Below are positions 1 to 27,252 of a stretch of DNA of 64,000 bases, piece by piece (position 1 is the first letter of the stretch; every line of letters starts with the position of its first letter). The position numbers and the translations under genes are program-made. The stretch is taken from positions 496,001-560,000 of the forward strand of contig JBEWZL010000013.1 in assembly GCA_045837725.1 (NCBI GenBank), read 5' to 3'. The notes under the pieces were generated by a model, which was not told the DNA's origin, did not search any database, and was given only the letters and a program-made list of their open reading frames with translations. The DNA is from Vermamoeba vermiformis. Lineage: Eukaryota.

Positions 1-2374
1 TGACGTTGAGCATGCTTGTATGTTTGGTGACTTGACAGGAACAGCGCTGTTCATCAATTCGAGCACCATTGACTGCGCTGCTCCACTGTATCTCAGTGAT
101 GACACGACACTTTCGATCACTGCGTATGGTCAGCCTTACACGAATGCAATTGACATTCTTGTCTCCGGTATGTTTGATCGATCACTTGACAACACTCAAC
201 TGATGGTGATGAGTTGTAGGCTGTCAGAACATCAATGGCTCATCGTCATGCTCATCACAATGTACTGAACAAGAGCACTGTGGCTGGTGTGTTGCATCGA
301 GCACGTGCTCAACACAAGGGTTCTGTTCACCCTCACAAGTACTGTTGGATGAGTGCATAGATATTTCCGTCAGTCCGAGCATCTTTGGAGTGAATTTGGA
401 CACGACGGCAACAATCACAGTGTCACCTCGAGTGCCACAAGTATGGTACTCGGCCAAAAGAACATCGATTGCAATAGCCGGTCTCTATTGCTTCCTATCG
501 ACGGGCAGTTCGGTTCCTGTACTCATCACTAGCGCAACGACTCTTACTTGCGATCTGCCTAAATTGACCAATCCAAGCAGCGAGCCAGTCTCTCTGACAA
601 TCAAGTTTCAGAATCAAACACTAGCTGGTCCAGTCGTGCTTGAAACGATCGACTGTTCTTCTTACGGAGTGTGTGAAGAATGCCCGTATGTACCAGGTCA
701 TATTCGAATGTATCAGCGCTAACCAAAGTAATATTTGCAGGTCAGCTTGTGTTTGGTGCTGCAGTAGTGGATGTCAATGTGCGATACCTTATAGTTGCGA
801 GTATTCTTATGATTGTGGCAGTCCATCAGCTCCTGCTTTGCATCCCGAAATAGTGTTCCCTGCCTCGATTATTCCACCAGTAGTTGTTGCAGTAGGAATA
901 GCAGTTCTCGTTGTTTTACTGAAGCGTCGCAATCGAAGAAGAAAAGCAATGAAAAATCAAGAACTCACCAATTACACGTCAATTGACTCCGTGCAAGGCA
1001 AACACAAGAAAAAGACGACGAAAGTTCTGAGTAAGTCCAGCATTGTCTATAATTATCGGACCCTTCTCACGCTATCCAGACACGATCAATCAGAAGATGG
1101 AAATTCCATTTGCATCGCTCGAGATGAAGAAAGAAATAGGCTCAGGAAGCTACGGCAAGGTCTATTTAGGGTAAGTAATTCATCACAAGTCTCACGTCGT
1201 TCGAATTTAACTTTGGTAGACAATGGCAAGGAGCAAAAGTTGCAATCAAAGTGTGTGCATCGATTGCAAACATTGACGGATTCTTTGACGAAGCAACACT
1301 CACAATGTAAGTCAAATCGCACTGAATGAATGAATCATACTGACTTATCTCGCTTTAGTGCACTCCCTCCGCACCCGAATGTTGTGCAAACATTTGGCAT
1401 CAGTGTTGACGGAGCATTGCCGTGCATCGTGCTGGAATACTGTGGCGGTGGCAGTCTCGACAAGAAGATATTCAACAGAGATGCATCGTACTCGTCTGAA
1501 GATCAAGTTCGATTGATCAAAGGCATTGCTCGTGGACTGTTGCACCTTCACACAAACAACATTGTTCATCGTGATCTTGCTGCACGAAACATATTGGTAC
1601 GTACATATCATGATACTTTACATCAATCATGTTGTTAACGAATAATGTGTTTTTACAGCTGACACGTGGAGGCAAACCTAAAATCTCTGTAAGTGTCAAA
1701 GTGTCCACACATTTGATATGATTGGCTAACATGAGTTTCATTTAGGACTTTGGCATGTCTCGACTTCTCAAAGAAGAGTCACAAAAAGGTCAAACAAAGT
1801 CAACTGTTGGTCCGTTGAAGTGGATGGTAAAATTCATTTTGATCAGAGACACCTTTGAGTCAAGTGCAGTGAATGACAATACCATTATCTCATCATGTCT
1901 ATCATAGGCTCCAGAAAGTATTCGAGACAACAGCTACAGCACGAAGAGTGACGTGTGGACATTTGGCATATTGAGTAAGTGTCGACAATAGATACTTTCT
2001 AGAACGGATTTTAACGATCGTAGTGTACGAAATTCTAAGCGGTAGTGAGCCTCATGCGAGTATGGACGTGATTGACGTTGCGGCAAAGATCAAGTTAGTA
2101 AATCGCACAAATGACATATTTTTAATTTTATGTTAGGAACGAGTATTATCATCCTGAAATACCAGACGAATGGAACGATCATTTTAAGTCCATTATACTC
2201 TCGTGTTGGCATTCAAATCCAGATCAACGTCCCGTATCCTTAGAAATGATATGATTACACTTAGTCATGATTACGGAGCGAGTATTTCCCTTAATCAAGA
2301 TACGCTAGGATATAGGTGAAATATTTGAACAATTGCGAGCAGGATTCACAGAAGACGAATTAGAATCGTCATAG
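1..2374 (+). CDS. Receptor tyrosine-kinase-like protein (IPT/TIG + PSI Cys-rich ectodomain, TM, kinase); 5' end lies outside the window; multi-exon
   Basis: Spliced exons give PSI-like Cys clusters (CGWC), IPT-like beta segments, TM VVVAVGIAVLVVLL followed by KRRNRRRK, then GSGSYGKVY, VAIK, HRDLAARN, DFG and GPLKWMAPE. Stop TAG at 2372-2374. Confidence 0.9.
2234..2308 (+). other. U12-type (minor spliceosome) GT-AG intron
   Basis: Donor GTATCCTT; branch-like TTTCCCTTAAT about 14 nt before the AG with no pyrimidine tract. Removal gives in-frame DQRP|DIGEIFEQL. Confidence 0.8.
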
Positions 2375-2586
2375 CAGTTCAGTGAACGAATTCACAATTT
2401 ATCTCCCTGCGTGATTGAGAATTAAATCAATCCACCCAGCGGAATTTTTGTGCAAGCGAAAGCACAAACTTGCACGTGGTAGGAAATCTCCTCAATAACC
2501 GCTCGACGATTGGCTGGTTAGCTCCGTTTTGTGATCGATTTACTACTTAGTGATCACAAAAGGGACATGGTTATTCCGCTGCAAGC

Positions 2587-2593
2587 TATAAAA
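2587..2593 (+). promoter_or_regulatory. TATA box of the 154-aa gene
   Basis: TATAAAA 50 nt upstream of ATG 2637; AATAAA at 3143-3148 follows the stop. Confidence 0.5.
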
Positions 2594-2636
2594 CTCGTCA
2601 GCTTTTGAGCATCTAAATTATAAGTATATCTTTACA

Positions 2637-3101
2637 ATGGCAGACGAACAGAACATTGTCAAGTTAGACGAGCACCCCTTGGCTCAACGCTTTTCTGAGA
2701 TGAAACTTGTCGAGATCAAGCCTGCACAAGAACTCGAGGATTACTTAATTCAAGAGCTTCTTGGAAAAGGCGTTCAAAAGAGGCTCGTCATCGTATACAG
2801 ACCTTTGGGCGGAAACCAGTTATTCTTCTACAATGAACAACTGTTGCCCATCATTGATCCGCACAGCCTGTATCATTCTCAAACTATCTACTTCACGAAT
2901 CAAGTAAGGCTTCCCGGAGAACCCCTATTTGGTGCCATTAAAATGGATCGTAATGTCGAAGTCCATGGCAAACCGTCCTTGACGAACAAGCTCAAGCTTA
3001 TTTACCCCGGTGGAAGCTACATTTTCCGTGATGAATACTCGCTTTTGTCTTGGAGCGGCAATACCGATGCTTTGCAGAGCGCTGAAGCGCACATCCAGTA
3101 A
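2637..3101 (+). CDS. Intronless hypothetical protein, 154 aa
   Basis: Clean ORF with ACAATGG start context, upstream TATA box and downstream poly(A) signal; no family recognised. Confidence 0.75.
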   Translation: MADEQNIVKLDEHPLAQRFSEMKLVEIKPAQELEDYLIQELLGKGVQKRLVIVYRPLGGNQLFFYNEQLLPIIDPHSLYHSQTIYFTNQVRLPGEPLFGAIKMDRNVEVHGKPSLTNKLKLIYPGGSYIFRDEYSLLSWSGNTDALQSAEAHIQ

Positions 3102-3270
3102 CTGCGCTGCATCAACTTTGTATCTTTTGTCCCCGGTTCATGAATAAAGGGTTTTGGTACTACCTGAGTGTGCGCACTTTACAAAAAACCGATGAACGAT
3201 GTTGCAGAGGCTTGACGACAATGATAAGAGTATGAAATAGTACGATTAACAACAATAATGTACAAGTGGT

Positions 3271-5493
3271 TTATTCGAGAACTACATTCGGAATATTGTT
3301 ATTACGCAGAAATTCTTCCAGATCCTTTTTTGATTTAAATCCGATTTTAGTAAAATTCTGCTTGAGGAACACTTCGCATATACTACGCAGACTAGGGGGA
3401 TTGTATCTCTCGTAATTTTTGAATATTATCGGCATGTATTCTAACGCCTTTGGTGTTTTGAACCATTGATAACAAAATAAATGATCTGTCATATTAAACT
3501 TCGCTATAACCGCCCTATTATGATCTATAATAATATAATCGTTAATATTAAAAATAAATGTAACAAAAAGCGGACCCGAAAATTTGAAGTGGATCCGGTT
3601 ACAAAAATGACGGAATTAGTTTAAATTATATAATTACCTAAATAACTAAGAGCAGCTAATGCAAATAGACTTAACGACTCTAATTCTGGTATTCCTGAGT
3701 CTCCCCATTTGAAAAAATGTTCAACGAACGACCACACGATTCCTTTTTCTTTCTCTTCTGCGCGAATGCTCTCTGTTTGTACTTTGTTTAAAAATCGTTC
3801 AATTACTTGTAACGCTCCTTTGTCAATTAACGGCTGTGTAAACCTCGCTGAAAATAAAATTAATAAAATGAAGTGGATTGATTACAAGGAGATAATACTT
3901 ACAATCGACGAGTAAATTGGCCAATATGATAATTCCGAACCATACTGATAGTAATTCAAATGAGTTTTCTACGTCAGCAACTTTCAAAACTGCATCCGCT
4001 CCATGGTCGAATACAACTTTTCGACAATTAGCTGTAAACAGTAAATTAGGGTCAAATAAGCTTATACATGAGAATAAAACGACGATAAAGCAATTAATTA
4101 AGCGTAATTGTAAGTATTTTCGAAATTGTGGATTTGACGAATTTGTACCGGCTTATTGAGCTGTTATTAGATAATCTACAAGAATTATAAATATATATAC
4201 CGTTAGTAGAGCTGCATTGTAGACAACCAAAGCATCGATATCTTTCCGAAGTAGCATACATGTCCATATTCAACGCATCCACCGACAAACTCACTAATTT
4301 CTCCATAATTCCATCTTTAACAGCGGTCTCTTGTATGACCTCGTATTCCATCATGCCCCATATAGCTCCCACACCTGTATATTGCAGCTTTGTGCTATTA
4401 CTGTACAAAAACATTTTGATCGGCTCGAGTGCTCCTGATTCGTATAGAATATGCAGCGTTTCATCTGTAAAAAAGTATTAAAATATGAAACTATATGTAT
4501 AATATATATCTTAAATAAGAATGATACTCGTTGTGGCCTTAAATCGAATCGCTAGATCCGGTATAAAATTTCGTTCTTTCAATTATCATGTATAGATACA
4601 TATTATGGCATAACCGATTATAATGGTAATACGTGAACATTAACTTACAATTTTCGCCAAAATTCCAGACAACTGAACCAATAACCATTTGTAGATCCGG
4701 ATCTGTCACCGTTTTCATCAATTTTATCAGATGATCCACGCCTCCTCGCTCCGCAAAATACAGCTTGTTAACGACTATATTAAATGAAGTATTAGCTATC
4801 GCTCGCAACGCGTTGGATCTTAACACCTCTTTGATAAACTGTCAAAAATCAAACAATCAAAGTAATAAATTAAGATTATGATAGAATTTGCGGTAATATT
4901 ATGGCGTTATATTATAATGTTGATATAAGGCTGAAATTGAACTCCATCGTGTTTCGGACTTTCGGAATAAATGTTTTGGATTTCATCCAGTATCTTCTGT
5001 GGTACCCAATCACTTACAGTTCTGCTTATTGAGCCATGGAATAAAATAAAAATCTGATAATTTGATAGCTGCGCGTAGAATTAAGTCTCGATCTGAAGAC
5101 TTGAGTTGCTCGATCAGTTCGTCAATTTTTTCTCGTTGTGGTTCTGCTTCTATAATCGAAAAAATATTAATATTTATTTTATTTAAAACAATTACTGTAA
5201 GTTTAAGTGGTTTATAAGCGCTAGTAAATTGTGAAGAAATTTGGATGGAATTGGCAGTTACGAAACGTGCGCATTGATTTACAAAAAAAAATCAAATCCT
5301 TCACGCATAATATTTGCATTAATATTAAATAATAATATAATCGCCGTGAATGGTTCTGAATTAGTCAATAAAAAATTTATTTACCTTTCTGAGTCAATAC
5401 TTGATCCGGAATTAATAGCGGTGCTTCCCGCGCTCCTATTACTTCGTCATACATCATTAAAAATGTCTGATCATTCATATGATCAGGTTCCAT
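3271..5493 (-). CDS. Armadillo-repeat protein with a C-terminal BC-box/SOCS-like motif; multi-exon
   Basis: Exons encode ARM-like helices (KIDELIEQLKSSDRDLILRAAIKL; NALRAIANTS...GGVDHLIKLM; GVGAIWGM). The last exon has PPSLRSICEVFL. The start codon is inferred. Confidence 0.65.
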
Positions 5494-5798
5494 TTTCACC
5501 GGTGGTAGTTGTTCCGGTTCAAAAAAATTTTGTCTTGTAAACTGTTGTTGACCGCTAAACACTGAACCCACCGCCAGTCCCTATTTAACATACACACGTC
5601 GCGGAGTTGCGGCCAATATTAAACCTTGCTAAGAAAACGGATGTCGTTCTGATCTGATCCATCCGGATTAAGCTTTTGTAACCACTTTAGAGATGGAATG
5701 GAGTATTACGTGTTTATTCAATTTTTTGCAAATAAGAGCGATGGACGTACGTAATATTGATGTATTTAATGCTATAGTACAACAGAACAAGCAGCTTC

Positions 5799-8700
5799 TT
5801 AAAGCTTGACTTTAATCTTTTTCTCGCGCTCTTCCTTGGATGAAGACGTCGAATTCGAATTGATATTAACTTGCGTAGTGCCTGAACGTCTTCGACCAGA
5901 TCCGGCACCTGGCGATCCAGATGGCGAACGTCTGTCCTTGTCGTCTTCAGATTGTTCCCTAATGAGTCGTATTAGTACGAACATTATGGTGTGATATGAT
6001 GCGGGTGGAACTTACAATCGTTGGCTAGATCGTTTGGTGGTTTTGGGTGAGACTTTGATACCTTCACTGTTGCTGCGACCAGGCTTGACTTTGAAAATTG
6101 AATTGATAGGGCTCTCAGGAATAGACTTCAACAGCTTATTTAGGGACACCTCGACTCTATAGACAATAATATATGAGCTATTGTTCGATAAAACTACTAT
6201 GAGGGTAACACTTACTTCGTGAACGAGGGTCTCTTCGCTGATTTGCCGCTCCAGCAGGTCTTCATCAACTTGCCATATTCTTTCGGGCAATTATCAGGGA
6301 TCACAGGGCGATGTCCCTATAGTGATATTTAGTACTTAATCTCCGGTTTATACTAACAAAAAGTCGCATCAACTTACGCGAATGACCGCCAATGGAATTT
6401 CAAATGTGCTCTCATCTTCAAAGGGAATTCTTCGCGTCCAAAGCTCCCAAAGCACAATGCCGAATGAATATACGTCTGCCTTCTCCGTATAATGTTCTTG
6501 TTGGAAAATTTCGGGTGCGATCCACGAGACCGTGCTAGTCACATTGATTAGTAACTGACCGCTATTTATTGGCTTGAAATTTCACTTACCCGACGTTGCC
6601 GGTCATATTTCGTTCACGATCGATCAATCGCGACAATCCAAAGTCACAAACTTTCACGTTCAAATCGTTATCGACCTGTATTTGACTTAATCAGTACTCA
6701 TCGTCCTATTTAATATACTATAGTATTATACTTACCAATAAGTTGACGCTCTTCAAGTCGCGATGAATTAAATTGCACGCATGCAAATATTCCATGCCAC
6801 GGCAGACCTACACATTGCCACGTTAGTTGTTACAATACAATAGTATTATTAGCCCTACTTGTATCGCCATCTTATAGACATGGTAGGGCTCTAGCTTCAC
6901 ATCCTGCTTGCTCAACAAATTGAACAAATTGTCTTCCATTAACTCGCTCAAAATAGCGTAGTTGTCGTTCTTAGTTTGACCTCCGTAGCAACGCACCAAA
7001 TTGGGATGATTGACGAGACTAAGGTATTATAGGTTAGATCAAGTCGAATACTATATTTAGCACAGCTACTATGTACCTCATAATCGAGATTTCTCGAATA
7101 AAATCGTCGTGGTTAGGAATGCCCTTGAATTTTTTGAGCGCGCATAATTTGCCATTCCAACGGACTAATACAACGTTATTAATTAACTACCATTAAATAA
7201 CAATTGAATTCTATTAGTTACCTTTGTGGACGACTGCTTCAGTTCCTTCGCCGATCCGCTCAATAATCTCGTAGCTATTTGGAGGAATCTCACGATGCAA
7301 TTGGACCTAAAAAATTCGTATTATTAATTAATAATAAGTAGCTATAATATTGGTGCTCGTAGTTAGCCTCAGGAGTCTTAAAATCGAGGTAATGAAAATT
7401 ACTAATATTGTCTTAATTGAATGTCGTTCTTATGACGATATAATGCATACTTATGTTATATAAACCTATAAACTAATTTTTGCAAATATTTTAAGTGCGT
7501 TCTTACCGAGCCAGCAATCGCAAGCGACAGCAGGTATTGAAGCCCAGTTTTAGCCTGTGCCACAGCACTGCAAATAGTTTCTCTGGCAACTGTAAACTCC
7601 GATCTATGAAGCCATATTAATAGGTATTCATCACGTGTGCTAGTGAGTGTGGCATCCGGATTTGGATGGGCAGAAAAATTTAGGATCCTACTTACGGTGA
7701 TTCATTTAGATATCCTGCTATAGTCTGAGCAGCCATAATACGCAACTCGCCCTCTTCTTGCAACAAATCGACTAATATCGATAATTCTTCGTCGGAGTAA
7801 ATGCCGCGAGAGCCTGCATCCCGAAAAGCGGTACGTTAATTTTTGCCAAACAAGTTATTATGCGCTACGTATTTAACTTACGTAATTCACCAGTCTTAAG
7901 CATGCTAATAATTTCGTTTCTTTTTTCTGTCTTTGTCTTGGTCGTTTGTTCGAAGAGCAAGTAGTTTAACAAAGCGACGTCTTTCTCCGCAGGTATTTTT
8001 TGTGAGGGATAAAATATATTCTTATATGCCATGCTCATATGGCGAATAACTTGCCTAAAAACTGTTGTTAGTTTCAAGATCGAGATCCGCTACATTTTTC
8101 GAATTTTACCGCTTTTGCTCGTCTGTGGCTTTTGAGGCTACAAATGGCATTACTGCTACTGTTTCTATCTTAGTCTCAGGGAATAGGGCATCTTTCTGTT
8201 CGCTTTCGCTTTTAACTCGATTGTTGTGATCCCGGATGGCAAACATTAATCCTCGCATAGCGTTGTAGGCATAGTCTTGAGACATTAAATGAGGCGATCT
8301 ACTTAAACATAAAAACGCCACGTATTTGTATTTTCGAGAGACTTCTTTGACGGAGTTTCGTACGACAATAGCAGATGCGACCGGCTAAAGAGATTTTTTA
8401 AATTAAAAATGCTTTAAATAATTTAATTTATTGATCTAATCTTACCTGTTCGCCACAGTATTGATTTTGAATTACATTTAAGATCCGTTGAAGAGTTGTA
8501 CCAAGATCACTACAAATAAATACTTATCAGCAACTCACTTAAATAGATGATATAGAAAAGCAACAATTAATATTCCGACGCAATAAATAAAATATACTTG
8601 AATTTCAATTTGACTGATAATTTAGAAATTAAACAAATTTGGATGAACCAGCCAAAAGCTTACTTTGCATATTTATCTACATATTCGCCACTTCGACCAA

Positions 8701-8860
8701 AGCTAGACGTGCAAGGCAGTACTAAACAATCTACACTCCCCAATTGGTCTACCGAGTCTTTGCTGATCTGGCAGTTCGGAAAGCTTCTGAAAAATTCAGC
8801 GTACATAGGGCCAAGGGCATCATCACCCTCAGTCAATAGGACCAAAGATGTGTTTTGCAT
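5799..8860 (-). CDS. TKL-type Ser/Thr kinase with an N-terminal degenerate macrodomain-like region; multi-exon
   Basis: Kinase exons: IGEGTEAVVHK, HRDLKSVNLL, CDFGLSR, WIAPE, ADVYSFGIVLWE. Upstream exons: DCLVLPCTSSFG, YCGEQPVASAIV, YNAMRGLMFAIRDHN, IETVAVMPF, MSMAY. Intron phases are compatible across the whole span. The kinase part is confident; the fusion is inferred. Confidence 0.7.
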
Positions 8861-9219
8861 GGCTATGTGGTGCCTAATTTTAACGACAAAAAAAATGGAA
8901 AAGTAAATTTCCGTCAACAAAATTAATTTTCTATCGGCAGCGCCTTTTTCGGAAATATTAAATTTTAGTCTCAATGCCCAAGAGTGCTATTAAACAGCAT
9001 CTGGACTAGCGTGCATTCACAAGTTAAAGCGAGGTATATATTAAGTAAATTTGTACCAGAACCTTGGGAATTAATCCTCCTGATATACTCGATTGTTAAA
9101 TTTCTTAATTTGATTAGTGCTTAAAGCTCACTAACAATTATGTGCACGGTTAAGCAACTTAACGATATAAAGCAGTTTTGTAGCGGATCTAATTTTTTTC
9201 GGAACCGAAAATATTTACA

Positions 9220-12200
9220 TTACGAATCAGAGTCCTCATCGGAGACGAAGTGATCTTGTAGCTGCTTATTAATTTCTTTCATCGTCTGATTAAATGTTGG
9301 TCAAGGAAAACAACCGTTAGTAACAAAAATAAGTAAAAAATTATAAATCGTTAGGATACGGGTCGCTGTTCGGGATCTGGGTGCCAACATGAGAGCATAA
9401 TATTCTTTAGACAAAAATGCCAATCATCGAATATTTCGGGATGATAATTATCGTTCCTAACATTTTTGGTTAATCCAGATCTTAGTCGTTGCTATTAACC
9501 GATACTTACTTGATCTTCACTCCCACGTCTATATTATCCATTCCAGCGTGAGGCTCATGTCCACTCAGAATTTCGTAAACTGAATGCAAGATCGTTAACA
9601 AAACTTTCGCTGCAGCGGATCGTGCCACTTACTTAATATGCCAAATGTCCACACGTCACTCTTCGTGCTGTAGCTAGTGTCTCGAATACTTTCTGGAGCC
9701 TATGATAGATAAGTAGATGGTCATTCACTGCACTCGACTCAAAGGTGTCGCTGATCAAAATGAACTTTACCATCCACTTCAACGGACCAACAGTTGACTT
9801 TGTTTGACCTTTTTGTGACTCTTCTTTCAGCAGTCGAGACATGCCAAAGTCCTAAATGAAACGAACGTTAGCCAATCAAGTCGAACTTGTGTGTAAGTTA
9901 CACTTACAGAAATCTTCGGTTTGCCTCCACGTGTCAGCTGTAAAGACAATATTACGTTAATTACATGATCGATGTAAATTATAATGATAGTGACGTACCA
10001 ATATGTTTCGTGCAGCAAGATCACGATGAATTATGTTGTTTGTGTGAAGATGCAACAGTCCACGAGCGATGCCTTTGATCAATCGAACTTGATCTTCAGA
10101 CGAGTACGATGCGTCTCTATTGAATATCTTCTTGTCGAGACTGCCACCGCCACAGTATTCCAGCACGATGCACGGCAATGCTCCGTCAACACTGATGCCA
10201 AATGTTTGCACAACATTCGGGTGCGGAGGGAGTGCACTTATGCGAGACAAGTCAGCATTGTTCATTCATTCAGTGCGATTTGACTTACATGGTGAGTGTT
10301 GCTTCGTCAAAGAATCCGTCAATGTTTGCAATCGATGCACACACTTTGATTGCAACTTTTGCTCCTTGCCATTGTCTACGAAGAGTTAAATATTCGAACG
10401 ACATAAGACACGCAGTGATGGCACTTACCCTAAATAGACCTTGCCGTAGCTTCCTGAGCCTATTTCTTTCTTCATTTCGAGCGACGCAAATGGAATTTCC
10501 ATCTTCTGATTGATCGTATCTGGATAGCGTGAGAAGGGTCCGATAATTATAGACAATACTGAACTTACTCAGAACTTTCGTCTTTTTCTTGTGTTTGCCT
10601 TGCATGGAGTCAATTGAGGTGTAATTGGTGAGTTCTTGATTTTTCATTGCTTTTCTTCTTCGCTTGCGGCGCTTCAGTAAAACAACGAGGACTGCTATTC
10701 CTACTGCAGCAACTACTGTAGGAACAATGAAAGCTGGAAGAACGACGCTGGGGTCCCAAGGAGCCGCTCCCTCTGGAAACGAACAATCGCGCACGAAACT
10801 ACAATTGTACGCGATCACGTATCCAGCAGGGCACCAATTGCATGCACTTGCCGACCTACAACCTCATTGTTAGTAGCTGACAAACTAGCAACAATTACAT
10901 GTGGTGCGTACAAACAGGTCTCGCAACTTGTGAACGGCGAGCAATCGAATGACTGGAGTTCAATGGGGTCAACAAGTGTCTGGTTCTGGAACTTGATGGT
11001 CATTATTACAGGATCGGCAGTGATCAACTTTGGCAAGTCACACGTCAGCGTTGTTTCGTTGGTGATAATTGCAGGAATTGAGTCACCAGTAGATAAGTAG
11101 CAATTAAGACCATCGATTGTGACCGCAGTTCGCTTTGCCGAGTACCATACTTGTGGCACTCGAGGTGACACTGTGATTGTTGCTGTCGTGTCAAACTTTG
11201 AATCGAAGGTACTGGGACTGACGGATATCTCCAAGCATTCCTCCAACAGTACTTGCGAGGGTGCACAGAACGCTTGTGTTGAGCACGTGCTCGATGCAAC
11301 ACACCAGCCACAGTGTTCTTGTTCAGTACATTGTGACGAGCACGAAGACGAGCCATTGGTGTTCTGACAGCCTAAAACTCATCAGCATCAGTTGAGTGTT
11401 GTCAAATGATCGATCAAACATACCGGAGACATCAATGTCAATTGCATTCGTGTAAGATTGACCATACGCTGTGATCGAAAGTGTCGTGTCATCACTGAGA
11501 TACAGTGGAGCAGTGCAGTCAATGGTGCTCGAATTGATGAACAACGCTGTTCCTGTCAAGTCATCAAAAAGACAAGCATGCTCAACGTCATCATAGAACG
11601 GTCCTCCAGTCACTCTGATTACTTGTTGTGCATCGCTATTCGCTCGAATGAACGATGGAGTGATTGAAGTGATTGTCGGACACACATTCAGTTCGTGACT
11701 TGCGCCATCACAGCTTGTCGCACAATGAGTGATGCACCATCGACAGCTCTGTGAGGCACTCAAACATTCGCCACATGAGCTAGTGATGTTCGCACAATCT
11801 GACGAGGCATTAGCGAACTAGTCAACGGTTGTTGCAGCAGTACTCACCAAACCAAGAGAATGGAAGTGAGTTGGTCCATGGCTCTGTGTTGCCAAGTGCT
11901 GTCAAGTGCACGCTACCGATGACGGGACGAGATACAGTTGGTGATAAACATTGCACGCTGTTCGTTGTGACAAGTGATGCAAGTATCACATCAGAGGAGG
12001 TTCCGTCGTGAGTCCAAACACAACTCACATTGCTTGGATCATCGAGCACACTTGCATTCAATGACCCATTCAATGCGATTGTTATTCCTCCCGTCAGTGG
12101 TGAGCTGTTTGGCATCGCTGAGTTTATCGCTAATGCACTCATGTTAGTTCGTGAGTGATGACAAGTCAAACACGTACTTGGACAAGATGACAACGATGTG

Positions 12201-13944
12201 AGCTTTGTTGATGAGCACGATGATGACGAGTGGTCACATGAAGCTGTGCTGGTGCAATAGACGCATTCAGGACGTGTGCCATCGAGACATGTTGTGCATG
12301 ACTTGGTCTCACAATCTGACGAGCACTACGTTAGCCCTCAGCGTTCAACGATATTGAAACACTCACCGTAGATGTTGAAATCGAAGTTGGGTACCACTCG
12401 TGCAAAACTACCCGCCACTGAGTTGTACAACCAAAGAGATATTGAATGTGCACCAACACTCAAACTCTTTGGAATGTCACATGTGAGTGATGATGCATTC
12501 TGATAGATGCCTTCTGAGCTCGTGCTCATCGAGTCACCAACTGAGTCGAAGGCACAAACAAATGATTGGCCGTTGAACTGTGCAAAACTGACTCCTGAGA
12601 CTGAACGCGTGATTGGTGTTAGATCCTCGTCAAATCACTCATTCAAAGTACGTACCAGTCATGGTTTGACCTGATTGCACTGTTGAGATGAACACTGTTG
12701 CTGGTGATACTGATGTGATCGATGTGCAAGTGCCTGTTGTGGCACAGCTGACATTGCTGTAACGACACGATTGAGAATCGAAACAGAATGCACACGCACC
12801 ATTCGTACGAGCACTATTGCATGACTCGCAGTCTTGTCCATACGTATCGCAATCTAATCATCATTATCAATGTAAGCAAAGAGTACTGCATTCAGTGAAT
12901 GGCATTACCAAATAAGGAAATCGATGATGATTTCGAAGCGAACTGAACAGAAGAGTCCACTGTGATGACGAGATCTGCCACCACTTCTCTGTTTGTTCCA
13001 CGAGTTGAGGTCCAATCGTTGTTTGTCACCATTGGAGGTGCGCAAGTGAGTGAGTGAGATGAGATCACTGTTGCGAGTGTTGCACTGTTCGTGATTGATG
13101 TGCCGTAACTGCATTCGTAACTCATCGTTTGAGGAATGGAAGTGTCAAATGTCACTGTCAAGTTCATGCCTTGTGTTGCGATTAGCTCTTGCATCAGATA
13201 ACTTTGATCGACTTACCACCATTAATGGAAGCTGTATTTGGTGATATGGAAGTTATTGTTGGACATTTTGAGACAAATCCACTCGAGCACGATGTCAGTG
13301 ATGCGCATTGCATTGTTGGAATGCAAATACCGCACAACGGCAACGAAAGACAATCGGTGCATGGAGCTGCGCTGGATAAAGCGGAACAACCTTCGCAATA
13401 ACGTGTTATTTAATGATCGCGATATTCTTTTAATAGTAATTTCTTTGTACTTACTGTAAAAGGTGAAAGTGAGGGTCGTGTTCGACCATTGTTCGTTGTT
13501 CGCCAAAACTTTGAAACTTGTCTTGCCAATAGAGAATGACGGAGCTGTGCACGTGATCGTTCTTGCATTGACGATCACTGCATTGACGAGTGATGCTCCA
13601 AATTGACAAGTGATTCCATTTGTGAGCACTTGGCCCTGTGCATCCACGAATAAACCATTCGCTGTCACTGCAAAACCTCCATCGTTCGGTCCTGCACTCG
13701 GAAATATACTTGATAACTCTAAATTGAAATATATCTGAATTAATAATAATTCAAAAATATCAAAAAATAAACCGAATCTGGGATCCCAAAAGTAACGTAA
13801 TTTTACCTGGAATAACTGCGCCATTTACGCCAAAACTTATCCAATTTTTTATTGCAGCAATAGCCTGAAGACAAAAATTAGCAAAATGGATCGAGCAGTT
13901 GCCGCGCTTACCAAGGCGATCAGGATCCAACGCCAAGTTCCCAT
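9220..13944 (-). CDS. Receptor tyrosine-kinase-like protein with signal peptide, repeated IPT/TIG + PSI modules, TM and kinase; multi-exon
   Basis: MGTWRWILIAL signal exon; IPT motif FPSAGPNDGGFAVTANG; several CxxC...CxWC/CVYC PSI exons; TM; HRDLAARN; GPLKWMAPE; stop at 9220. Confidence 0.9.
9286..9359 (-). other. U12-type GT-AG intron
   Basis: Minus-strand donor GTATCCTAA; branch TTTTCCTTGAC ending 14 nt before the 3' splice site; joins EQRP|TMKEINKQL. Confidence 0.85.
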
Positions 13945-14255
13945 TGAACGCTATGGCAGACAGTGCCTTGGCTAGTGTATTCTATTCGCTGTAAAAAGGC
14001 AACAATTCCAAAACAATCTCTCTCGTGTCTCCAATGTCATGTGTCAGTTGTGATACCAATTATCTCGTAGGATCTGATTCTCGATCACTTTAGTAATTAC
14101 CTTCCACAAAAAGGCAATAACTAACCTCAATCCTCCATACTAACCACTTGCGAGCAAAGATTTGGCCCTCTCTCAAAGTTAATTTGCTATTTACTGTTTA
14201 CAAGTTCTTCTCGTGCAATGGGCCTGTTCAAGTTCAGATCCGGTGAATACTGGTG

Positions 14256-17200
14256 CTAATCTGAGTGCTCGTCATCCGTGAAGTATTGCTGCAACTTTTT
14301 CGCGATCTCCTGCATTGTCTACGAGAGCGTTAAGGAAACAAGGGCGATGAGAAAGAGTGATAAAAATCGATTTAAAAGGTAATTGAAAAGTAAGAAAGAA
14401 TATAGGATACGGGACGTTGATCCGGATCTGGGTGCCAACACGAGAGCATAATAGACTTCAAATGATCGTTCCATTTGTCTGGTATTTCAGGATGATAATA
14501 CTCGTTCCTAATTCAATTAGTACCACTGTTTTTTTCATAATTACAATACACGTACTTGATTTTCATTGCTACATCGATCACGTCCATCTTCGTGTGAGGC
14601 TCATTCTCGCTCAGAATTTCGTACACTAAATACGGAGTCAATTTACAACGGACATCGAGACGGTAGCCTTACTCAATATGCCAAATGTCCACACATCACT
14701 CTTCGTGCTGTAAGTCATGTCAACAATACTTTCCGGAGCCTACAATTGCCAAATTAGAACTTTACATTGAATGTTCCGAGCTTACCATCCATCGTAGCGG
14801 ACCAACAGTTGACTTTGTTTGACCTTTTTGTGACTCTTCTTTGAGCAATCGAGACATACCAAAGTCCTAAACGAAACGAACGTTAGCCAATCAAATAGAA
14901 CTCGTGTCCAAGTTTGCACTCACAGATATCTTTGGTTTGCCTCCACGTGTCAGCTGTAAAACACAATATTACGTTAAGAACATGATCGATGTAAGTATCA
15001 TGATATGTACGTACCAATATGTTTCGTGCAGCAAGATCACGATGAATTATGTTGTTTGTGTGAAGATGCAACAGTCCACGAGCGATGCCTTTGATTAGTC
15101 CAACCTTGCCTTCAAAAGTAAATGCGTTTGATTCATCGAACAGTTTCTTGTCGAGACTGCCACCGCCACAGTATTCCAGCACAATGCATGGCAATGCTCC
15201 GTCAACACTGATGCCAAATGTTTGCACAACATTCGGGTGCGGAGGCAAACCACTTTAACGATTTTAGACAAGCATAGCAATTGAAGGTACGTACATTGTT
15301 AGCACTGCTTCGTCAAAGAATCCATCAACATTGGCTACCGAAGCACATACTTTGATCGCGACCTTTGCGCCTTGCCAGGTCCTTCAGTCAACATTAGCTT
15401 ACTGCTGCTATGACGAGCGCAAAACATACCCTAGATAGACTTTTCCGTAACTTCCAGCGCCTATCTCGCGCTTCCGTTCAAGGGATTCATACGGAATTTT
15501 CATCTTTGCGTTAATAGACGATACAATAAAAGTTAATTTTTTGAACACGGAATTCCTTTTATATTGTTTTACCTATACCGCTCGAGCTCTTCTTATCAAA
15601 AGGAATAGATTTATAGTGAGTGTTGCTACTCGGTTTGTTTGCAAGCTGTTGAACGCTTGAAGAAGAAGATTCGGGTTCGGGTGCTTGTGCAGCAAGGTTG
15701 CCTTGGGTACTTTGTGGTTTCGTGTCCGCCTTTTGTCGGCGCTTGTCTTCAAGGCGATGGTCTTCTTCGGCTTCATCCCTTTTACTTTGCTTTGCCTGCC
15801 TTTTCTTTTCTGCCAGTCGCTCTTTTTCCTCCTTTCGTCTATTCTTTTTCGCTTGATATTTAGTTGCCTCGATTTTTCTCAACTCTTCGTTATTTTGCAG
15901 TTTCTTTCGTTTGTGGCGCTGAAGCAGCACAACCAAAAGTACAGCTCCTGCAGCCAGAACAACGGTCGGAATCAGTACTGCCGGAATAACTATTTGCGCT
16001 AAAGTAGTACACTCTTGCTTTTGTGAGCAGCGATGACTAATGACGCATGAATCACCACACCAGACACATTGACTTGGTCTACAATAGATCGTCAACGAAA
16101 GAAAATAATTGATCCTGAACTTACACGCATTGATCGCAGGTGTTGTACGCAGCACAGTAGAATGTCTCGAGTGTCGTTGGAGCGATCAGAGTGCTGTTTA
16201 GATACTTCACCGTCAAGGTAACCGGTTGATTGGTACTGCTCAATTTCGGCAAGTCACACGTCAAGGTCCAATTACTCGTTACGACTGCAACTATTGAATC
16301 TCCCGTAGACAGCTCACAGTACACGTCGTTTGTTGACAGCGCCGCCCTCTTTGTCGAGTACAATAACTCGGGCAAACTAGGAGCTACGGATATTGTGACA
16401 GTTTCGTCAAAGGATGGATCGAAGATGCTTGGACTAAGAGAAATTTCCAAACATTCGTCCAAGAATATCGCTTTATGAGAACAAATTACTTGGGCAGAAC
16501 ATCTTCCCGACGCAACGCACCAACCACAGTGCTTTTGTTGGTGACACTCCGAAGAACACATGGTAGTGTTCGTGTGGCACTCTGAAGGGTATTAGCATAT
16601 TATTATTACAAAACTGTAACGTACCAAATACTTCGACATCGATTGAATTCGTGTACGGCTGACCAAACGCCATAATTGTCAACTTGGCGTTTTTCAGCAA
16701 GAAGACAGGCACGTCACAATAGACCACGCTGTCGTTGAAAAATGTTGCCTGAGCCGGAATGTCGTCAAACATGCAAACATAAGTAACGTCATTGTAGAAG
16801 TAGCCCCCGTATGCCATGATCGTTTGTTGAGCGTCACTATTAGCAAGGACGTATGACGGAGTTATTGACATGATAGCAGGGCATACGGATAACTGATAAG
16901 GACTTGTGTCACATGATCTCGCACAATGTGTCACACACCACGTGCACCACCTTGGCGTCGATGCACTGATGCACTCGTTACACGAGCCAGTAATGTTTTC
17001 GCAAGCTGAAAGGGTGTTAACAATGACTTATTGACGTAATAATAACTTGCCTATCCAAGAGAATGGCAAAGCGTTGGTCCAAGGCTCCGCACTGCCTAAC
17101 ACTGACAAATGTAACTCGCCTTTTGTTGGATTTGCTACAGCGGGAGAAGTACATCGCACCTCATTTTTCGACGAAGAAGATGCATAGACGACAGCTGATT

Positions 17201-19204
17201 CGTTGTCGTGGTTCCAAACACAGCTCACATTTGCTGGATCAGCAAGAAGACTCACGTCTAAAGTTCCGTTGATAATCACTGGTCTGCCTCCAAGCGCCAG
17301 TACAATACTCGGAGATACTCCGTATATTACTACCCTCATTGTTAGTGACACCTTTTCCAGGTCATGTTTGAAATTATGGAAGTGTACCTGGACAAGAAGT
17401 GGGCGAGGAGTACTTTGTAGACGAACACGAAGCTGACTGATGGATACAAGACGCTGTGTTGCTGCAATAGACGCACTCCGGACGCGTTCCGTCGAGGCAT
17501 TTTGTGCAAGACTGCGTTTCACAATCTACCAGAAGCGTTAGAATTATGCTGTAGAATGGTCTAAGACTTACCAAAGATATTGAAAGCATAGCTCGCAACT
17601 ATTTGGCTATATGATCCTACTGCACTGCTATATAACCAGATCGAAACAGTATGTGTCCCGACGTTAAAATAAGTCGGGATTTGACAAGTTATGCCAAAAG
17701 CGTTCCCACCCGCTGTCGTTGTGTTTCCCATGATTTCGCCGATAGAATCGAATGCGCACCAAACACTTGACCATTCAGATATGCAAATTGCCCTGAAACT
17801 ATAGATTCGTTGTTATTAGATATCACTTTGTTGAATTTCATACGTACGAGTCAGCGTTTGTCCGTCTTGCACTGCCGAAATGAACACATTTGACGGAGAC
17901 ACGGAAGATATCGCTACATCACATAGAAAGTTAAAACGAGACATAACCCTAAATTAGGTCTTACTTGGGCACGTGCCAGAGTCTGCGCACGATGTTGAGC
18001 CTTTGTAGCGACACTGTTGCGTGTCAAAACAGAATGTACACTGGTTTCGGGTCGCTGGACTCGTGCACGAATCACAAGTCTGTCCAAAAGTGTCGCAATC
18101 TCGATTAAACATTAACTTACTATATTATTTGGATATATAATAAAGTCTTACCAAATAAGTAAATTGCTTGAGGCAGAGAGAATACAGCAGATCCAGCTTT
18201 GATCAGGAAATCTACCATCAGTTCACGATTGTATCCACGAGCAATCGTCCAATCAGCTGTTGTTACTGTAGGTGCCTCACATGTGAGGGCAACCGAGGCA
18301 ATTAACACCGCTTGTGTCGCCGTGCTTGTCACTGAACTGCCGTATAAGCACTGATATTCCATATTGGGAATAGGATTCTCAAAAATTACAGTGTAATTGC
18401 CTAAGAATAATATTAGTTTGATTGTTAAATGACTTTTGGACTTACCGCCACCGAGACCTGCTATGGATGCAGTGGTCGGAGATACTTCCGTAATGAGCGG
18501 GTATGCCGGGCTGAAGCCACCCGGGCATCCAATTTTTGAAGAACATTGATTTGTAGGAAGGCACAAGCCGCACATTGGCAGTCCAAAACAGACGGTGCAC
18601 GGATCTCCTGATCCTGTCAAAGCGGAACAACCTAAATTGCAATCATTAGCAATAATTCGCTAGTTTTGATTTCAGTTGTTTTTTCTTCGTTATCAGTAAA
18701 TATTACCACTTACTATAATATTCAAACGCTAAAGTGGTGTTAGACCATTGCGTGCCGTTAACCAGAACTTGAAAAGTTGTATTTCCTGTGGATGCGGCTG
18801 GTGCGTTGCAACGTAGCGTCCTGGTTAACCGTGTTGTTAAATGGCAAGTGGCTCCGTTAGTCAAGATTTGTCCTTGCGAATCTACAAACAAACCGCGTAC
18901 AGTCACGCTAAATCCTCCGTCTGTCGGTCCACTAGCTGGAAATATAGTATAGATCTCTAGTCAAATATAAATACGGTTAAAAAAATTGATTATTAATCAA
19001 AATACTAATTGGGCATTTAAAAAAATCAGATCGCAAGTAAAAAAATTGTGTTTACCTGGGACAAGTGCATGCACTTCAAATTTTAAATGATTTATTTCAG
19101 CAATAACCTGAATTGGTACCGTTAGCAAACTACAATACGAAACAACGAAGATATTTTACCAAAACGCAGAAGATCCAACGTAGAGTTTGCCTGAAACGCC
19201 CCAT
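14256..19204 (-). CDS. Receptor tyrosine-kinase-like IPT/PSI paralogue with a longer charged juxtamembrane region; 1-nt frameshift near 17762
   Basis: Same exon architecture as 9220-13944; MGRFRQTLRWIFCVL signal exon; TM; HRDLAARN; GPLRWMAPE. Confidence 0.85.
14319..14410 (-). other. U12-type GT-AG intron
   Basis: Donor GTATCCTAT; consensus branch TTTCCTTAAC ending 10 nt before the 3' splice site; joins DQRP|TMQEIAKKL. Confidence 0.9.
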
Positions 19205-19303
19205 CAGTTGCTGAATTCAGTTCGCCTGTTGAATAAAATCAAAAATGATTCTTTTTGTCGGACTTTTCCCGCTCAGTCAAGTGTGTCAGGAATTGTGAGT
19301 CAA

Positions 19304-21411
19304 TCACTTGAAATGCTTTTCCGTATATTCGTAGTCCGCCAGCTGCCACTCGCCATCAACTAGCTCTTCTTTGATAATTATTGCGTTATCAGTGATTTTA
19401 GAAGGAGGAGTGTCGTACGGAATAAGCGAGAAATCTTCTATCGACACAGCACCAAACCTTCGAATTAACGTCAGACACGAACACCTACAATATGTTCACC
19501 ACACTTACATATGCGCATCTATTCCTGGAATGACATCATTGCGTTTTCTTCTATTGTACAACTTGGTTGCGAGTTCGTTTACAGTGCCACGCTGATCCGA
19601 GCGACTTGTGATCATCGAAAGCCTATTGATTAAATTTATAATTAATACCGTTTGAATATGACACTGCAATATTTACCTAACGGTCGATGTCTCCCAAATT
19701 CTGCGGGCACGGATCTGGGGTTTTCTGATCTTCTCTTTTGCCAGCTTCATCAACCGACAAGCACTCGTTTTAACTGACTCGTACGTTCCATCAGTATTCA
19801 GTACTACAACAGCTCTTTTGACGAGCATATGCTGCGACTCAAAGTCTATCACTTTAACGCTCGTGTCGTCGCAGATAACTAAACGACCTGGGCTGAACTA
19901 TTAACACAACCTTTATTAAGGTTGCCAAAAGGAGTAAAAAGAATTGATACTTACGCAACTGAACATTGGAGAGAACCTGTCAAATCTACCATGAATCAAA
20001 AAGCTGAAGTCTAACAGCAACCGAAGCGCACAAAGTTCCTTCTTTTTTAGCGCGTCAATGAAGTGAAGGTGACCAGTTTGTGTGCTCCCAATGACGATAA
20101 GATCATCGGCCAAAATAGCTGCTAAGAAACAAGGCGTACTTGCGACAGATCCAGGTTCGGTCGGCCAATTAGCCTCATTCACGACGTTACCTTTGAAATC
20201 CACCAGCTTCCATCCAATACCACCAATCAGCTGCGCGGTGTATAAAATCTGCAAGGATTGATGTCAGCCAGTATGACGAAAATAAGCTTTAAGTAACTTA
20301 CCCGATTGTCACCAAGAGCAAATAATGTTTCATTATATTCATATCTCGGCAATGATGCGACAGTGATGTTTGTCTCTGTGTCAATAACTTCGATTCTGTG
20401 GGGATGTGTAGGAAGAGCAAAGTATTTGCCGTGGAGTTGAAGCAAATTGTCCAAGTACTCCATTGACATGCTCCGCTCGGGGCTGACAACTCTTTCTTTC
20501 AAATTAATTACACATACTAGTTGCTTGTGTTCACTACAAACGAAATTGTGTGAATTCGAATGCAAAATCGAACGCCGGACATACTCTATTCGAATTATTG
20601 ATGGATAGTTAACATCGTTGTTTGGCAAATATCTTGTGCTGTAGATAAGATTGCCTATTGTCTGGAGTCTTGGAGGCAGTTCAATATTGAAAGTTGCGCC
20701 AGTTGTTTCGTCTAACACCGACACAGTTTCACCGCTCTGACAGGAATTAGTACTTCAATAAAATATTTCATTACCGTAGACTCGACGTACAGAATCAAGA
20801 ATCTGATAACCGTGCGTTATAGATTTTACAAAAGTAGCGTCACTTTTGTGCGATGACAGATTTATCAGACGCCTAATGTCGTATCGTTAGTTTCTTCTAA
20901 CAAGTTAGAGGAAGTGTTACCTATTCTGCAAACGAGAGGTTACGTGGACTTTGTTATTTCCTAGAGTAAAAGAGCATCCGTGGTTGTCAGGAACGTTAAA
21001 GAGCTCATAAACAACGCATCTGAAGAACAAATTTCAAAAAATATTCTTTAAATCCAAATCGTGGTCTTACCGTTCTTTTTTCATATTTAAGCGAGCTCTT
21101 ACAAAGGATTTCACACGTTTAGACCACTGTTGGTTTTCAAGTGAGCAGTAGGACAACTGAGAAGGAGATAAAATCTTCTATTTAATTATAAATAATTAGA
21201 TAAATGAAATGCATTCGATTTAATGCCCTAGTTATTTATTTTATTTTTGCATCAATAATTAAATTATTACCTTCCACATCTCCTCGGAAAAGTACTCGCT
21301 CCACCGTTTGCATACACGCTCGAGCAAAATTGCCCGCTTAGCTGAACAATTTTGCAATATCATGCAAAATATCTCCGGTGGAAGAGCTATCCAGCCAGCT
21401 TCGTCCTCCAT
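19304..21411 (-). CDS. F-box protein with a probable beta-rich/propeller-like C-terminal region; multi-exon
   Basis: First exon MEDEAGWIALPPEIFCMILQNCSAKRAILLERVCKRW matches the F-box consensus. Downstream exons are beta-strand rich (IVIGSTQTGHLHFIDA). Confidence 0.75.
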
Positions 21412-21741: not shown

Positions 21742-24013
21742 TTACTGTGTTGTATCCTCTGCAGGATTATTTTCGCTATTATTTAACTTTTCATGCGCGT
21801 CGTCTTTCTTGCAAACAATTCCTTCGCAAAATGGAGTACCACAAGAACAATCTAATTTCATCTTCTTATTCTTATTGTCGTTGACTTCAATGCCCATCCA
21901 ATCCGACACAAATTGACTAAATCGTTTTTTCTTCTTTTCTAGCCATTCTCTGCCGCGTGAATAAAAATCATCATTTTCTGAGATCAATGCGCCAACTGCG
22001 CCCAAGTAACCTTCGTGTGTCAAAAAATGCGCTTTCATTTCTCCTTTCGACCAAAAATTAATTGCGAATGACATTTTGGCCATTGTGTACGGATGTCCAC
22101 GGATGAAAAATCCTCCGAAATAAATTCTCTTCAGGCCCAATCTCAACGCGTTCAAATAAGCGACTTGACCAATATTGTTCGAAATCATTCGTAGTAAACT
22201 GAGGCAAATATCTTCTTTTCTAAAAAAATGAACGACAAGTCAGATCCAGATCTCGGGAACGCATAAAATTTTCTGAGTAAGTACGTACTTTAAATCGAGA
22301 CTACCGCCCTTCTGTATCGAATACATAATTTTACCAAAACTACTCGCAATAACATCTGACGCGAGACCAATTCGTGAATAATCTGTGCCATAAATATCAC
22401 CGACTAACAAATCGACCCTGCAATAATAATACTGTTAGTAACAGACTCATCGTAACCTCGCTCAGTGAAAATTCAACGTACTTTGTGTTATCGCCTTTCT
22501 CGCTCAATTGTAGCATGTCGTCAAAGTCCGTGAGACCAGTCAACAAGTTGCACAGACCCCAAAAAGTACCTCCTCCCAAACTCGTACCACCGATACGTTC
22601 AAACGATGATTCGGAGTCGACACGAATGATGCTCACACCAGAACCAATATTTACAAGCAAATAAGGGAATGGATTTGCCTGATAAATTGAACTCGTTAGA
22701 GCTTGGATTTGCGAACTCGATTTGTTTAAGGAGATCGGTCCCGATTATATCAATAACTTACAGATGGTGCAGCAAATGTCTTTGGGTTCGGATGATTGAT
22801 GTCTTGAGAGAAAGTAAAGGCCTCACTACAATCATCAAGTTAGCTTGATATATTACGGCAAGTTTAATTAATACTCACTTTGGCACGTTCTTGAGCAAAA
22901 AGTTCAATCCAACGATCAATGTGCGCATTTCATCTTCTTTCTCGAGCTTGACGCCCAATTTATCTTGAAACAAGTTCGCGTACTTGTGCGCACCTCCACC
23001 GGTCACCTTAAGAATGCCAGTCTGATGCAAATTGTTCTCTGTTAAATGTAATAATATTATTAATATCATTATAATAACAACCGTAACATAAGATAGAAAA
23101 TTCTAGAAGAGTCTAAAGTAAGATCTAGAACCGCTTTGATATTGCGTCGGGATATTGTTCTATATATAGATCGTAACGCACCTTGCATAAATTGCAATAA
23201 TTCATCGAGTTTTGTAGCGACTTCAAACTTGATAAAGTGTAACGAACCACCGGCAATTTCTTCTTGATCGTCCTCGCCAGGAGTAGAAGGGACAACAGGT
23301 CTGTTCGGTTCAAAATAAACTAATTTGGCAAGGGAACCACCTATAATATTGAAATTAATACGTTGCTATTTGAAATCGAATAAACGGTGCCGCGCAACGA
23401 ACTGAAAATTGTGAATTCAAATTTCCGCGGTAAACTACGGAGAAAAGATTCCGCTCCGCTAAGATAGGATCAATTTGAATTGTTATTGCATGATTAAAGC
23501 GATTGTTAGGGCTATTGGTGCAATTTAAATTGTTTCGCTTTTCGGTTACAAAAAATTTTGACGTCAAAGCAAGAAATAAATGTTGAACCAATATTTAAAA
23601 ATAGCAAATAGCATGTTAATTAAAGATATGATGGCATTCTTAAATTACATCGCTGTCATAAATAATTTATTTTCAAATCCAATAACTAAAAATTGCAACA
23701 GGTCTTATTTTCTGTTTGCACCGATGCTTCGATAATCGGATAATCACATCTTATTTATTATATTTTTTGAGCACTTACCGATATCAAGACCGACACGTTT
23801 TACTGGATTCTTCTGATTTGGCATAAGGATGCAGACGGGGCAGCTGTCTTTCTTGTGAGACTTGCACTTTATTGATCCTTCGCTGCCTTTGTTGATTAAT
23901 GAAGCGTCGATGAAGTTCCACAGTCGATCCATCTTCGGAACGACGAACCTGGATACGAACCAGCGTCCGACGACCACAAATATAACTGACGGTATTATAA
24001 GCCAAATCCACAT
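21742..24013 (-). CDS. PANK: Type II (eukaryotic/fumble) pantothenate kinase
   Basis: [62 protein letters not shown] and [10 protein letters not shown] motifs. Confidence 0.95.
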
Positions 24014-24108
24014 TTAATATATTTTCATATTAAACGTGCTGTTGTTTCAATTTGAAAGGTTAAAAAAGGTGGATCGAAGAACTTTCCATAATCTTTTGTT
24101 TCAAACTG

Positions 24109-26187: not shown

Positions 26188-27252
<1,065 letters not shown>

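Follow-up and report, generated by a model that had tools for sequence, protein, structure and literature searches.

The last introns of three tandem receptor kinase genes in a 64,000-nucleotide (nt) stretch of the Vermamoeba vermiformis genome (GenBank assembly GCA_045837725.1, contig JBEWZL010000013.1, positions 496,001 to 560,000 of the forward strand, hereafter the window, ~41% G+C) carry the donor and branch-site motifs of U12-type introns, the class excised by the minor spliceosome. We consider it likely, at a probability of about 0.85, that they are genuine GT-AG U12-type introns that stem from one ancestral intron copied with the tandem genes and kept by selection on the two motifs. 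Genuine U12-type introns maintained in this way would imply that a minor spliceosome is still at work in the organism, and we infer removal by U11 and U12, the presence of minor small nuclear RNAs (snRNAs) and the direction of the switch in intron type discussed below from the sequence.

The three last introns and their motifs

The genes, numbered 1 to 3 here (kinases K1, K3 and K4, Table 1), encode predicted kinases of the IPT/TIG-PSI type. Gene 2 combines IPT/TIG domains and a PSI-like cysteine motif with a PK_Tyr_Ser-Thr kinase, and it has a transmembrane segment followed by the basic stop-transfer sequence KRRKRRRK, which predicts a single-pass receptor kinase. Pfam returned TIG matches in genes 2 and 3 (E-values from 1.6e-11 to 6e-4), kinase matches of about 1e-21 per exon, and a weak PSI match (E 0.0024, under the gathering score); the ectodomain of gene 1 lies beyond the window start, and assignment to the IPT/TIG-PSI kinases holds for the three genes as a set. 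Their kinase domains are interrupted by many very short introns, the chained exons are all open, and the kinase motifs HRDLAARN, DFG and APE are intact. Genes 1 and 2 share 86% nucleotide identity between 868-2240 (+) and 10728-9353 (-), through exons and upstream U2-type introns alike, and their HRD exons are 99% identical in protein; their last three introns and last exon have diverged or reached saturation. This looks like homogenization of the 5' part of the kinase domain by gene conversion. One contig of the set called X4, described below, joins 1169 to 10376, that is, gene 1 to gene 2.

A first-pass annotation of this stretch had claimed that all three last introns begin with GTATCCT, and they do so, and all end in AG. 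The U12 consensus is [G/A]TATCCTT for the donor and TTCCTT[G/A]AC for the branch site (preprint 10.1101/2020.10.12.336362). The branch motifs of genes 2 and 3 match this consensus at 9/9 positions and that of gene 1 at 7/9, as it also does when compared with TTCCTTAAC. The spacing of 10-14 nt between motif and AG in the annotation was roughly right, the gap being 11, 12 and 8 nt in genes 1, 2 and 3 when counted from the end of the motif, and slightly longer when counted from the branch A (Table 1). The last intron of gene 2 also contains TACTAAC ~32 nt from the AG.

Each intron is inserted in phase 0 right after the codons ..CW(H)..P(D/E)QRP, among the codons for kinase subdomain XI. Removal yields the C-termini DIGEIFEQL.., TMKEINKQL.. 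and TMQEIAKKL.., all of which continue into an acidic tail before the stop; left unspliced, gene 1 would meet a stop after 6 codons and gene 3 after 12. Three transcript-derived relatives are continuous across the site, namely P0001 (..ASRPSMEQVNAVL.., also ..ASRPSMEQVNAVLNANFVDEDSL), P0002 (..ERPSMTDVVQRL.., also ..ERPSMTDVVQRLNN..) and P0004 (..NRPSMEQICTKL.., also ..NRPSMEQICTKLNS..), and this continuity pins the junction to the nucleotides drawn in Table 1. In P0001, positions 1-256 of the Pfam kinase profile correspond to residues 448-695 and the RP dipeptide to residues 687-688, so that the last exon would encode the final nine or so kinase-profile positions plus the tail.

Table 1. Positions in the window of the kinase genes, their last introns and motifs, the introns of related kinases, and other genes
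Feature	Position	Strand	Remarks
Gene 1 (K1), IPT/PSI-type receptor kinase	1-2374	+	5' part beyond window start; Pfam kinase match, tblastn chain
Gene 1 last intron	2234-2308	+	75 nt, phase 0, GT-AG; putative U12-type
Gene 1 donor GTATCCTT	2234-2241	+	8/8 match to [G/A]TATCCTT
Gene 1 branch motif TCCCTTAAT	2287-2295	+	branch A 2294, 14 nt to intron end
Gene 1 last exon DIGEIFEQLRAGFTEDELESS, then stop	2309-2374	+	
Gene 2 (K3), receptor kinase	9220-13824	-	5' limit approximate; Pfam, exon chain
Gene 2 last intron	9286-9359	-	74 nt, phase 0, GT-AG; putative U12-type
Gene 2 donor GTATCCTA	9359-9352	-	7/8 match to [G/A]TATCCTT
Gene 2 branch motif TTCCTTGAC	9308-9300	-	branch A 9301, 15 nt to intron end
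Gene 2 last exon TMKEINKQLQDHFVSDEDSDS, then stop	9285-9220	-	
Gene 3 (K4), IPT/TIG repeats + kinase	14256 to at least 18960	-	Pfam, exon chain
Gene 3 last intron	14319-14410	-	92 nt, phase 0, GT-AG; putative U12-type
Gene 3 donor GTATCCTA	14410-14403	-	7/8 match to [G/A]TATCCTT
Gene 3 branch motif TTCCTTAAC	14337-14329	-	branch A 14330, 11 nt to intron end
Gene 3 last exon TMQEIAKKLQQYFTDDEHSD, then stop	14318-14256	-	
K2 (diverged kinase) U2-type intron GTAAGT	6157-6215	-	14 nt downstream of homologous site, after ..KRPSFT, phase 2
Kinase K5	36279-37170	+	no intron at homologous site, reads through ..NDRPDFDAICQY..
K6 U2-type intron GTAAGT..TATAG	55783-55842	-	homologous codon ..AERP / TMEEIA.., phase 0
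K7 U2-type intron GTAAGT..TCTAG	58941-58994	-	homologous codon ..ADRP / TMEEVA.., identical phase
K8 U2-type intron GTATGT..TTCAG	62321-62377	-	homologous codon ..ADRP / TMEEIA.., identical phase
Pantothenate kinase (Fumble) gene	21745-23365	-	
GH20 hexosaminidase gene	24064-25593	+	
GH47 mannosidase gene	40507-41758	-	
ANTH-domain protein gene	49136-49537	-	
Tim10/DDP gene	50481-50948	+	

A strict pattern consisting of GTATCCT, a branch motif within 150 nt and an AG 8-21 nt after the branch A occurs three times in the window, against a mean of 0.027 in 1000 first-order Markov simulations, at least one occurrence being present in 27 of the 1000 simulated windows. The string [AG]TATCCT on its own occurs eight times on the two strands, and only the three last introns add a branch motif and an AG to it. 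A relaxed pattern, [AG]TATC[CT]T with up to 600 nt allowed, gives six donor sites where 4.1 are expected; the three extra sites, at 2626, 25905 and 50128, are all AT..AG and are taken as chance. A further candidate, ATATCCTT at 24655, is coding sequence (DRPRYPWRG of the GH20 hexosaminidase gene) rather than intron.

For comparison with the major class, 37 intron coordinates were assembled from 24 introns of the homology chain (with exact residue counts), RNA-supported joints and the three same-site introns of K6 to K8, and two whose ends were not GT..AG were dropped, leaving 35 U2-type introns. Their donors are GTAAGT, GTACGT, GTATGT, GTGAGT and similar, in keeping with the first-pass annotation, which had called the donors of the other introns ordinary; at +5, 33 of them have G, two have A and none has C, where the three GTATCCT donors have C at both +5 and +6. 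The annotation had also proposed scoring against a position weight matrix, and in a matrix of our own built from the local U2-type introns (rather than intronIC) the three donors are extreme outliers, with scores of -0.8, -1.8 and -2.9 for genes 1, 2 and 3, below every local U2-type donor (leave-one-out scores of the 35 from 2.8 to 11.1, median 8.6). The three introns measure 74-92 nt against a U2-type median of 55 nt (many 42-62). The pyrimidine fraction at -20 to -4 is 0.53, 0.59 and 0.76 in the three, against 0.41-0.76 in 15 U2-type introns, three of which were read one or two bases out of register. The local U2-type introns have no clear pyrimidine tract, and they carry a yeast-like CTAAC, CTGAC or CTAAT branch site that usually lies 13-20 nt before the AG.

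In their interiors the last introns have diverged, as claimed earlier, to the point where pairwise identity among genes 1 to 3 (0.59, 0.49 and 0.53) equals that of shuffled sequence (0.57, 0.48 and 0.54), and the interiors of the two introns preceding the last one are at the same shuffled level. Against this background, positions +1 to +7 do not vary and all three last introns retain the branch motif, and every blastn alignment between the three genes ends 7 nt into the last intron. The donors of the adjacent, likewise saturated U2-type introns differ among the paralogues (GTAAGT/GTAAGT/GTAAGG in one, GTTAGT/GTAAGT/GTACGT in the other). Because the motifs are kept while the rest of the intron is saturated, they are under purifying selection, and this argues for recognition by the minor spliceosome. 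Indeed, motif conservation is the strongest argument here that the splicing machinery needs these motifs, and it supports, by inference only, a working minor spliceosome.

In the mechanism that we propose, the gene ancestral to the three tandem IPT/TIG-PSI kinases would have carried a single U12-type intron, gene duplication would have copied it along with each gene, and selection on the donor and branch motif would have preserved its type, with U11 pairing with GTATCCT and U12 with TCCTTRAC. Both pairings are established for the U12 class of introns.

The genes themselves are transcribed and spliced, since a set of contigs guessed to be RNA (X4) lacks the short kinase introns. Among the 15 of 40 X4 joints listed, 12 are GT..AG on the gene strand, and 10 are GT..AG joints that fall within the three kinase genes, distributed as one in gene 1 (685>741), six in gene 2 and three in gene 3. 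A search for transcript-derived proteins that cross the junction, with a 46-residue query from the penultimate exon of gene 3 that reached into the intron, gave five word-sharing candidates, none of them with E <= 0.001.

The intron site in related kinases and the kinase tree

Searches by tblastn with P0001 and P0004 located five further members of this kinase family in the window, and these differ at the homologous site (Table 1). The first-pass annotation had held that every member of the family carries the U12 intron; this is true of the three IPT/PSI genes, but in K6, K7 and K8 the intron at that codon is U2-type, K5 has none, and the U2-type intron of K2 is shifted. The nearest relative of K5 is P0054, an LRR-kinase. 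K6, K7 and K8 constitute a second tandem receptor-kinase array at 55600-63830 (-), in which the kinase domains of K7 and K8 are nearly identical (branch lengths ~0.005), and their nearest transcript-derived relative is P0019, with a legume-lectin plus EGF ectodomain. Across the transcript-derived relatives as a whole (P0001 to P0063), one conserved kinase domain is paired with varied ectodomains, including IPT/PSI-like, legume lectin plus EGF, LRR, Kelch repeats and the P-domain (proprotein convertase), and this variety is apparently a large receptor-kinase radiation by domain shuffling in a protist lineage.

A scan of metagenome contigs gave 80 loci, of which about 22 are close relatives from other organisms, some being duplicates of each other. 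A U2-type donor is present at the site in nine distinct metagenome genes, L004a, L004b, L005, L006 (=L007), L008 (=L010), L009, L011 (=L058), L013 and L033, and the site lacks an intron in L002 (=L003), L014, L016, L017, L019 and L045. The contig of L001, which is closest to the exon of K4 type (82%), stops before the site. At L002 (3738-4932), a kinase of the P0004 type, seven kinase-domain intron positions are common with genes 1 to 3 and only the last, the U12 site, is missing, which fits a precise loss of the last intron in a sister subfamily. Since the site is common to other subfamilies, where it is U2-type or lost, a switch of type appears to have occurred within the kinase family, and the intron site is, on these sequences, older than the IPT/PSI clade.

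Two trees were built, the first from 79 kinase domains (8 from the window, 14 metagenome loci and 57 transcript-derived), and the second after dropping K2, L016 and L019, which were long or gappy, and adding 10 outgroup rows, two of the 12 tried having lacked an HRD match. Both recover the clade (K1,K3),K4, with Shimodaira-Hasegawa-like approximate likelihood ratio (SH-aLRT) support of 97 and 97 in the first and 96 and 97 in the second. That the three genes form one clade suggests that the intron was copied by gene duplication, and the earlier claim that the U12 intron had multiplied through receptor gene duplication is borne out to this extent. The sister of the clade in both trees is P0001 plus P0002 (support 98-99), the next sister group is the intron-less L002/P0004 (96-97), and then come the U2-bearing K6 to K8 with L008 (99); the other U2-bearing lineages (L005/L006, L033, L013 and L004/L011) branch further out. 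By parsimony on intron type alone, one change is needed on the tree.

Alternative explanations

Several results weigh against the reading of the three introns as U12-type introns of ancestral origin. The branch motif of gene 1 departs from the consensus, and the shared phase 0 runs counter to the U12 class, which is biased away from that phase (10.1101/2020.10.12.336362). The missing pyrimidine tract, which had been put forward as a U12 trait, is real in that the local introns generally lack one, but the U2-type introns share it together with the close branch site, and neither trait discriminates; the case thus hinges on the donor together with the extended branch motif. In the 64-kb window, the pattern search found no further U12-like intron; none of the relatives' loci has a U12-type intron at this site, all being U2-type or empty there; and the 22 related metagenome loci (78,988 nt) contain no GTATCCT or ATATCCT with a branch motif. 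The junctions 2233/2309, 9360/9285 and 14411/14318 are absent among the 15 of 40 X4 joints listed, and the raw RNA runs X14, X15 and X16, which bear the species label of the best-matching DNA run, gave only 4, 6 and 7 reads on positions 1-20000 of the window (95-99% likeness), none of them in the three last introns, which is too few to bear on expression or junctions. The rarity of the pattern in the window and in the 79 kb of relatives, together with the U2-type state of the homologous-site introns in relatives and in K6 to K8, would also suit removal of the three introns by the major (U2) spliceosome, with the U12-like motifs as a historical leftover in a host that may have no minor spliceosome; TTAAC within the U12 motif fits a loose U2 branch consensus, the local U2 branch sites are equally near the AG, and the TACTAAC of gene 2 is perfect. 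We regard this as improbable, since the C at +5 and +6 places all three donors below each of the 35 U2-type donors, since a functionless leftover should have decayed in introns that are otherwise saturated, and since the neighbouring U2-type donors of the same paralogues do vary. It is more improbable still that the genes are decaying copies, or that the last intron is normally retained, so that the proteins end shortly past ..RP and the downstream exon is non-coding. The lack of a listed junction would be in line with this, as would the rather diverged last exon of gene 1 (nucleotide identity 0.59-0.63 to the other two), but the exons are open with their kinase motifs intact, the upstream introns are spliced in X4 contigs, the last exons hold both the frame and a [ST]M.E[IV]..L..F..DE pattern common with the transcript-derived relatives, and a retained intron would cost the protein the last nine positions of the kinase profile.

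If the three introns are U12-type, as we favor, then the direction of the switch has to be considered separately. The last of the results that count against an ancestral U12 state is that the outgroup-rooted maximum likelihood (ML) tree places the U12 clade within a series of U2-bearing lineages, so that nine events are required if U12-to-U2 change is irreversible and five if one U2-to-U12 change is allowed. This suggests the possibility that a U2-type intron at an old and widely shared site became U12-type once, in the IPT/PSI ancestor, and was then multiplied by tandem duplication. The K8 donor GTATGTT is two substitutions away from GTATCCT, the branch sites of local U2-type introns (CTAAC at 13-20 nt from the AG) resemble CTTAAC in place and sequence, and there is one documented precedent in Drosophila (PMC2831892). 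The U12 state would then have arisen by a natural U2-to-U12 conversion, which is generally deemed an almost forbidden direction, and this conversion may have been eased by the strict CTAAC at 13-20 nt from the AG in the U2-type introns of the host. We nevertheless hold it to be unlikely, though it merits more weight than either of the splicing alternatives above. An approximately unbiased (AU) test did not reject the IPT/PSI clade as sister of all other ingroup kinases (difference in log-likelihood 11, p 0.265), and with that alternative root one U12-to-U2 change is enough. The cost of the irreversible model over all rootings of the first tree is 6-12, the minimum of 6 being reached in 19 of 156, and backbone support is just 80-91 from a quick search. 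Apart from K6 to K8, the U2-type outgroups come from other organisms, in which minor-to-major conversion may have been genome-wide, as in Pelomyxa schiedti, where 69% of the positions aligned to human minor introns hold major-type introns (PMC10639083). Finally, the motifs of minor introns carry more information, and conversion is for this reason held to go almost only from minor to major (PMC2831892, PMC10639083). On balance, an ancestral U12 intron that turned U2-type in other lineages and was kept only in the IPT/PSI clade is the history we think probable, with less assurance than the U12 assignment itself.

Genomic setting and known systems

The pantothenate kinase, GH20, GH47, ANTH and Tim10/DDP genes, all ordinary housekeeping genes, lie between the two kinase arrays, and the pattern search found no U12-like intron in any of them. 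A search with an exon of the GH47 gene gave its best match, at 95%, in a EukProt transcriptome, and the matches to named organisms, at 44-61%, were spread across oomycetes, Naegleria, animals and amoebozoans. Two low-complexity tracts, at 27817-28079 and 37524-37732, one T/G-rich and the other G/A-rich purine just downstream of K5, explain the open reading frames in multiple frames at 27127-28318 and 37181-37806 and the skew peaks. The window also contains a U5 snRNA gene at 29244-29358 (+), a full-length match to the Rfam model RF00020 at 68.9 bits. It is the only spliceosomal snRNA found in the window with Rfam and is uninformative on minor splicing, U5 being common to both spliceosomes.

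The three introns resemble the canonical GT-AG U12 introns of animals, plants, some fungi and amoebozoans in having an extended donor and a branch site near the 3' end, in their rarity (three in the 64-kb window beside 35 other introns), and in lying in a paralogous gene family, as is the case for many minor introns (PMC10639083). Multiplication of U12 introns within gene families is already described. They differ from the canonical class in being in phase 0, and in occurring in lineage-specific, fast-diversifying receptor kinases rather than in a conserved housekeeping gene, which would mean that U12 introns are not confined to ancient housekeeping genes. In the literature covered we found no link between U12-type introns and protist receptor kinases, although the supplementary tables of the intron surveys, which lay outside the search, may list related organisms; the terms IPT, TIG, plexin and intron do not occur in PMC10463195. 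The first-pass annotation suggested that slow splicing at the last exon could limit receptor output; slower splicing has been demonstrated for a subset of U12 introns, with its generality questioned (PMC4066798).

A comparator among protists is Physarum polycephalum, which has 20,899 U12-type introns (10.1101/2020.10.12.336362) and in which U12 character is likewise conserved between paralogues. Most Physarum introns are without the classic branch site and have TTTGA at 9-12 nt from the 3' splice site, with a co-evolved U12 snRNA, whereas the introns here have the classic TTCCTTRAC; and U12 introns are abundant in Physarum, whereas U12-like introns are rare here, with three in the window. If minor snRNAs are confirmed, Vermamoeba would add a protist lineage to those that retain minor splicing.

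The closest parallel to the mixture of states in these kinases is offered by same-site U12/U2 pairs, in which some members of a family have a U12 intron and others a U2 intron (PMC2831892, PMC10639083). Such pairs underpin the model of minor-to-major conversion (Burge et al., cited in PMC2831892), and the GT-AG subtype of U12 introns is the one most prone to switching (PMC2831892). The kinases differ from those pairs in that both states are found within 64 kb of one genome, and in that the rooted tree suggests that U12 may be the derived state, the opposite of the usual direction. The window therefore holds a natural experiment, with the same site U12-type in three genes, U2-type in three and empty in one, and the family could serve, given the whole genome and a rooted tree of the kinases, to test the frequency and direction of intron-type switching. 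Should the U12 state in the kinases be derived, its precedent would be the twintron of Drosophila dURP (CG3294), the only U2-to-U12 conversion reported (PMC2831892). In dURP, active ancestral U2 sites surround cryptic U12 sites, whereas in the kinase introns no frame-keeping alternative GT or AG was noted, and only the TACTAAC of gene 2 could be set beside such sites.

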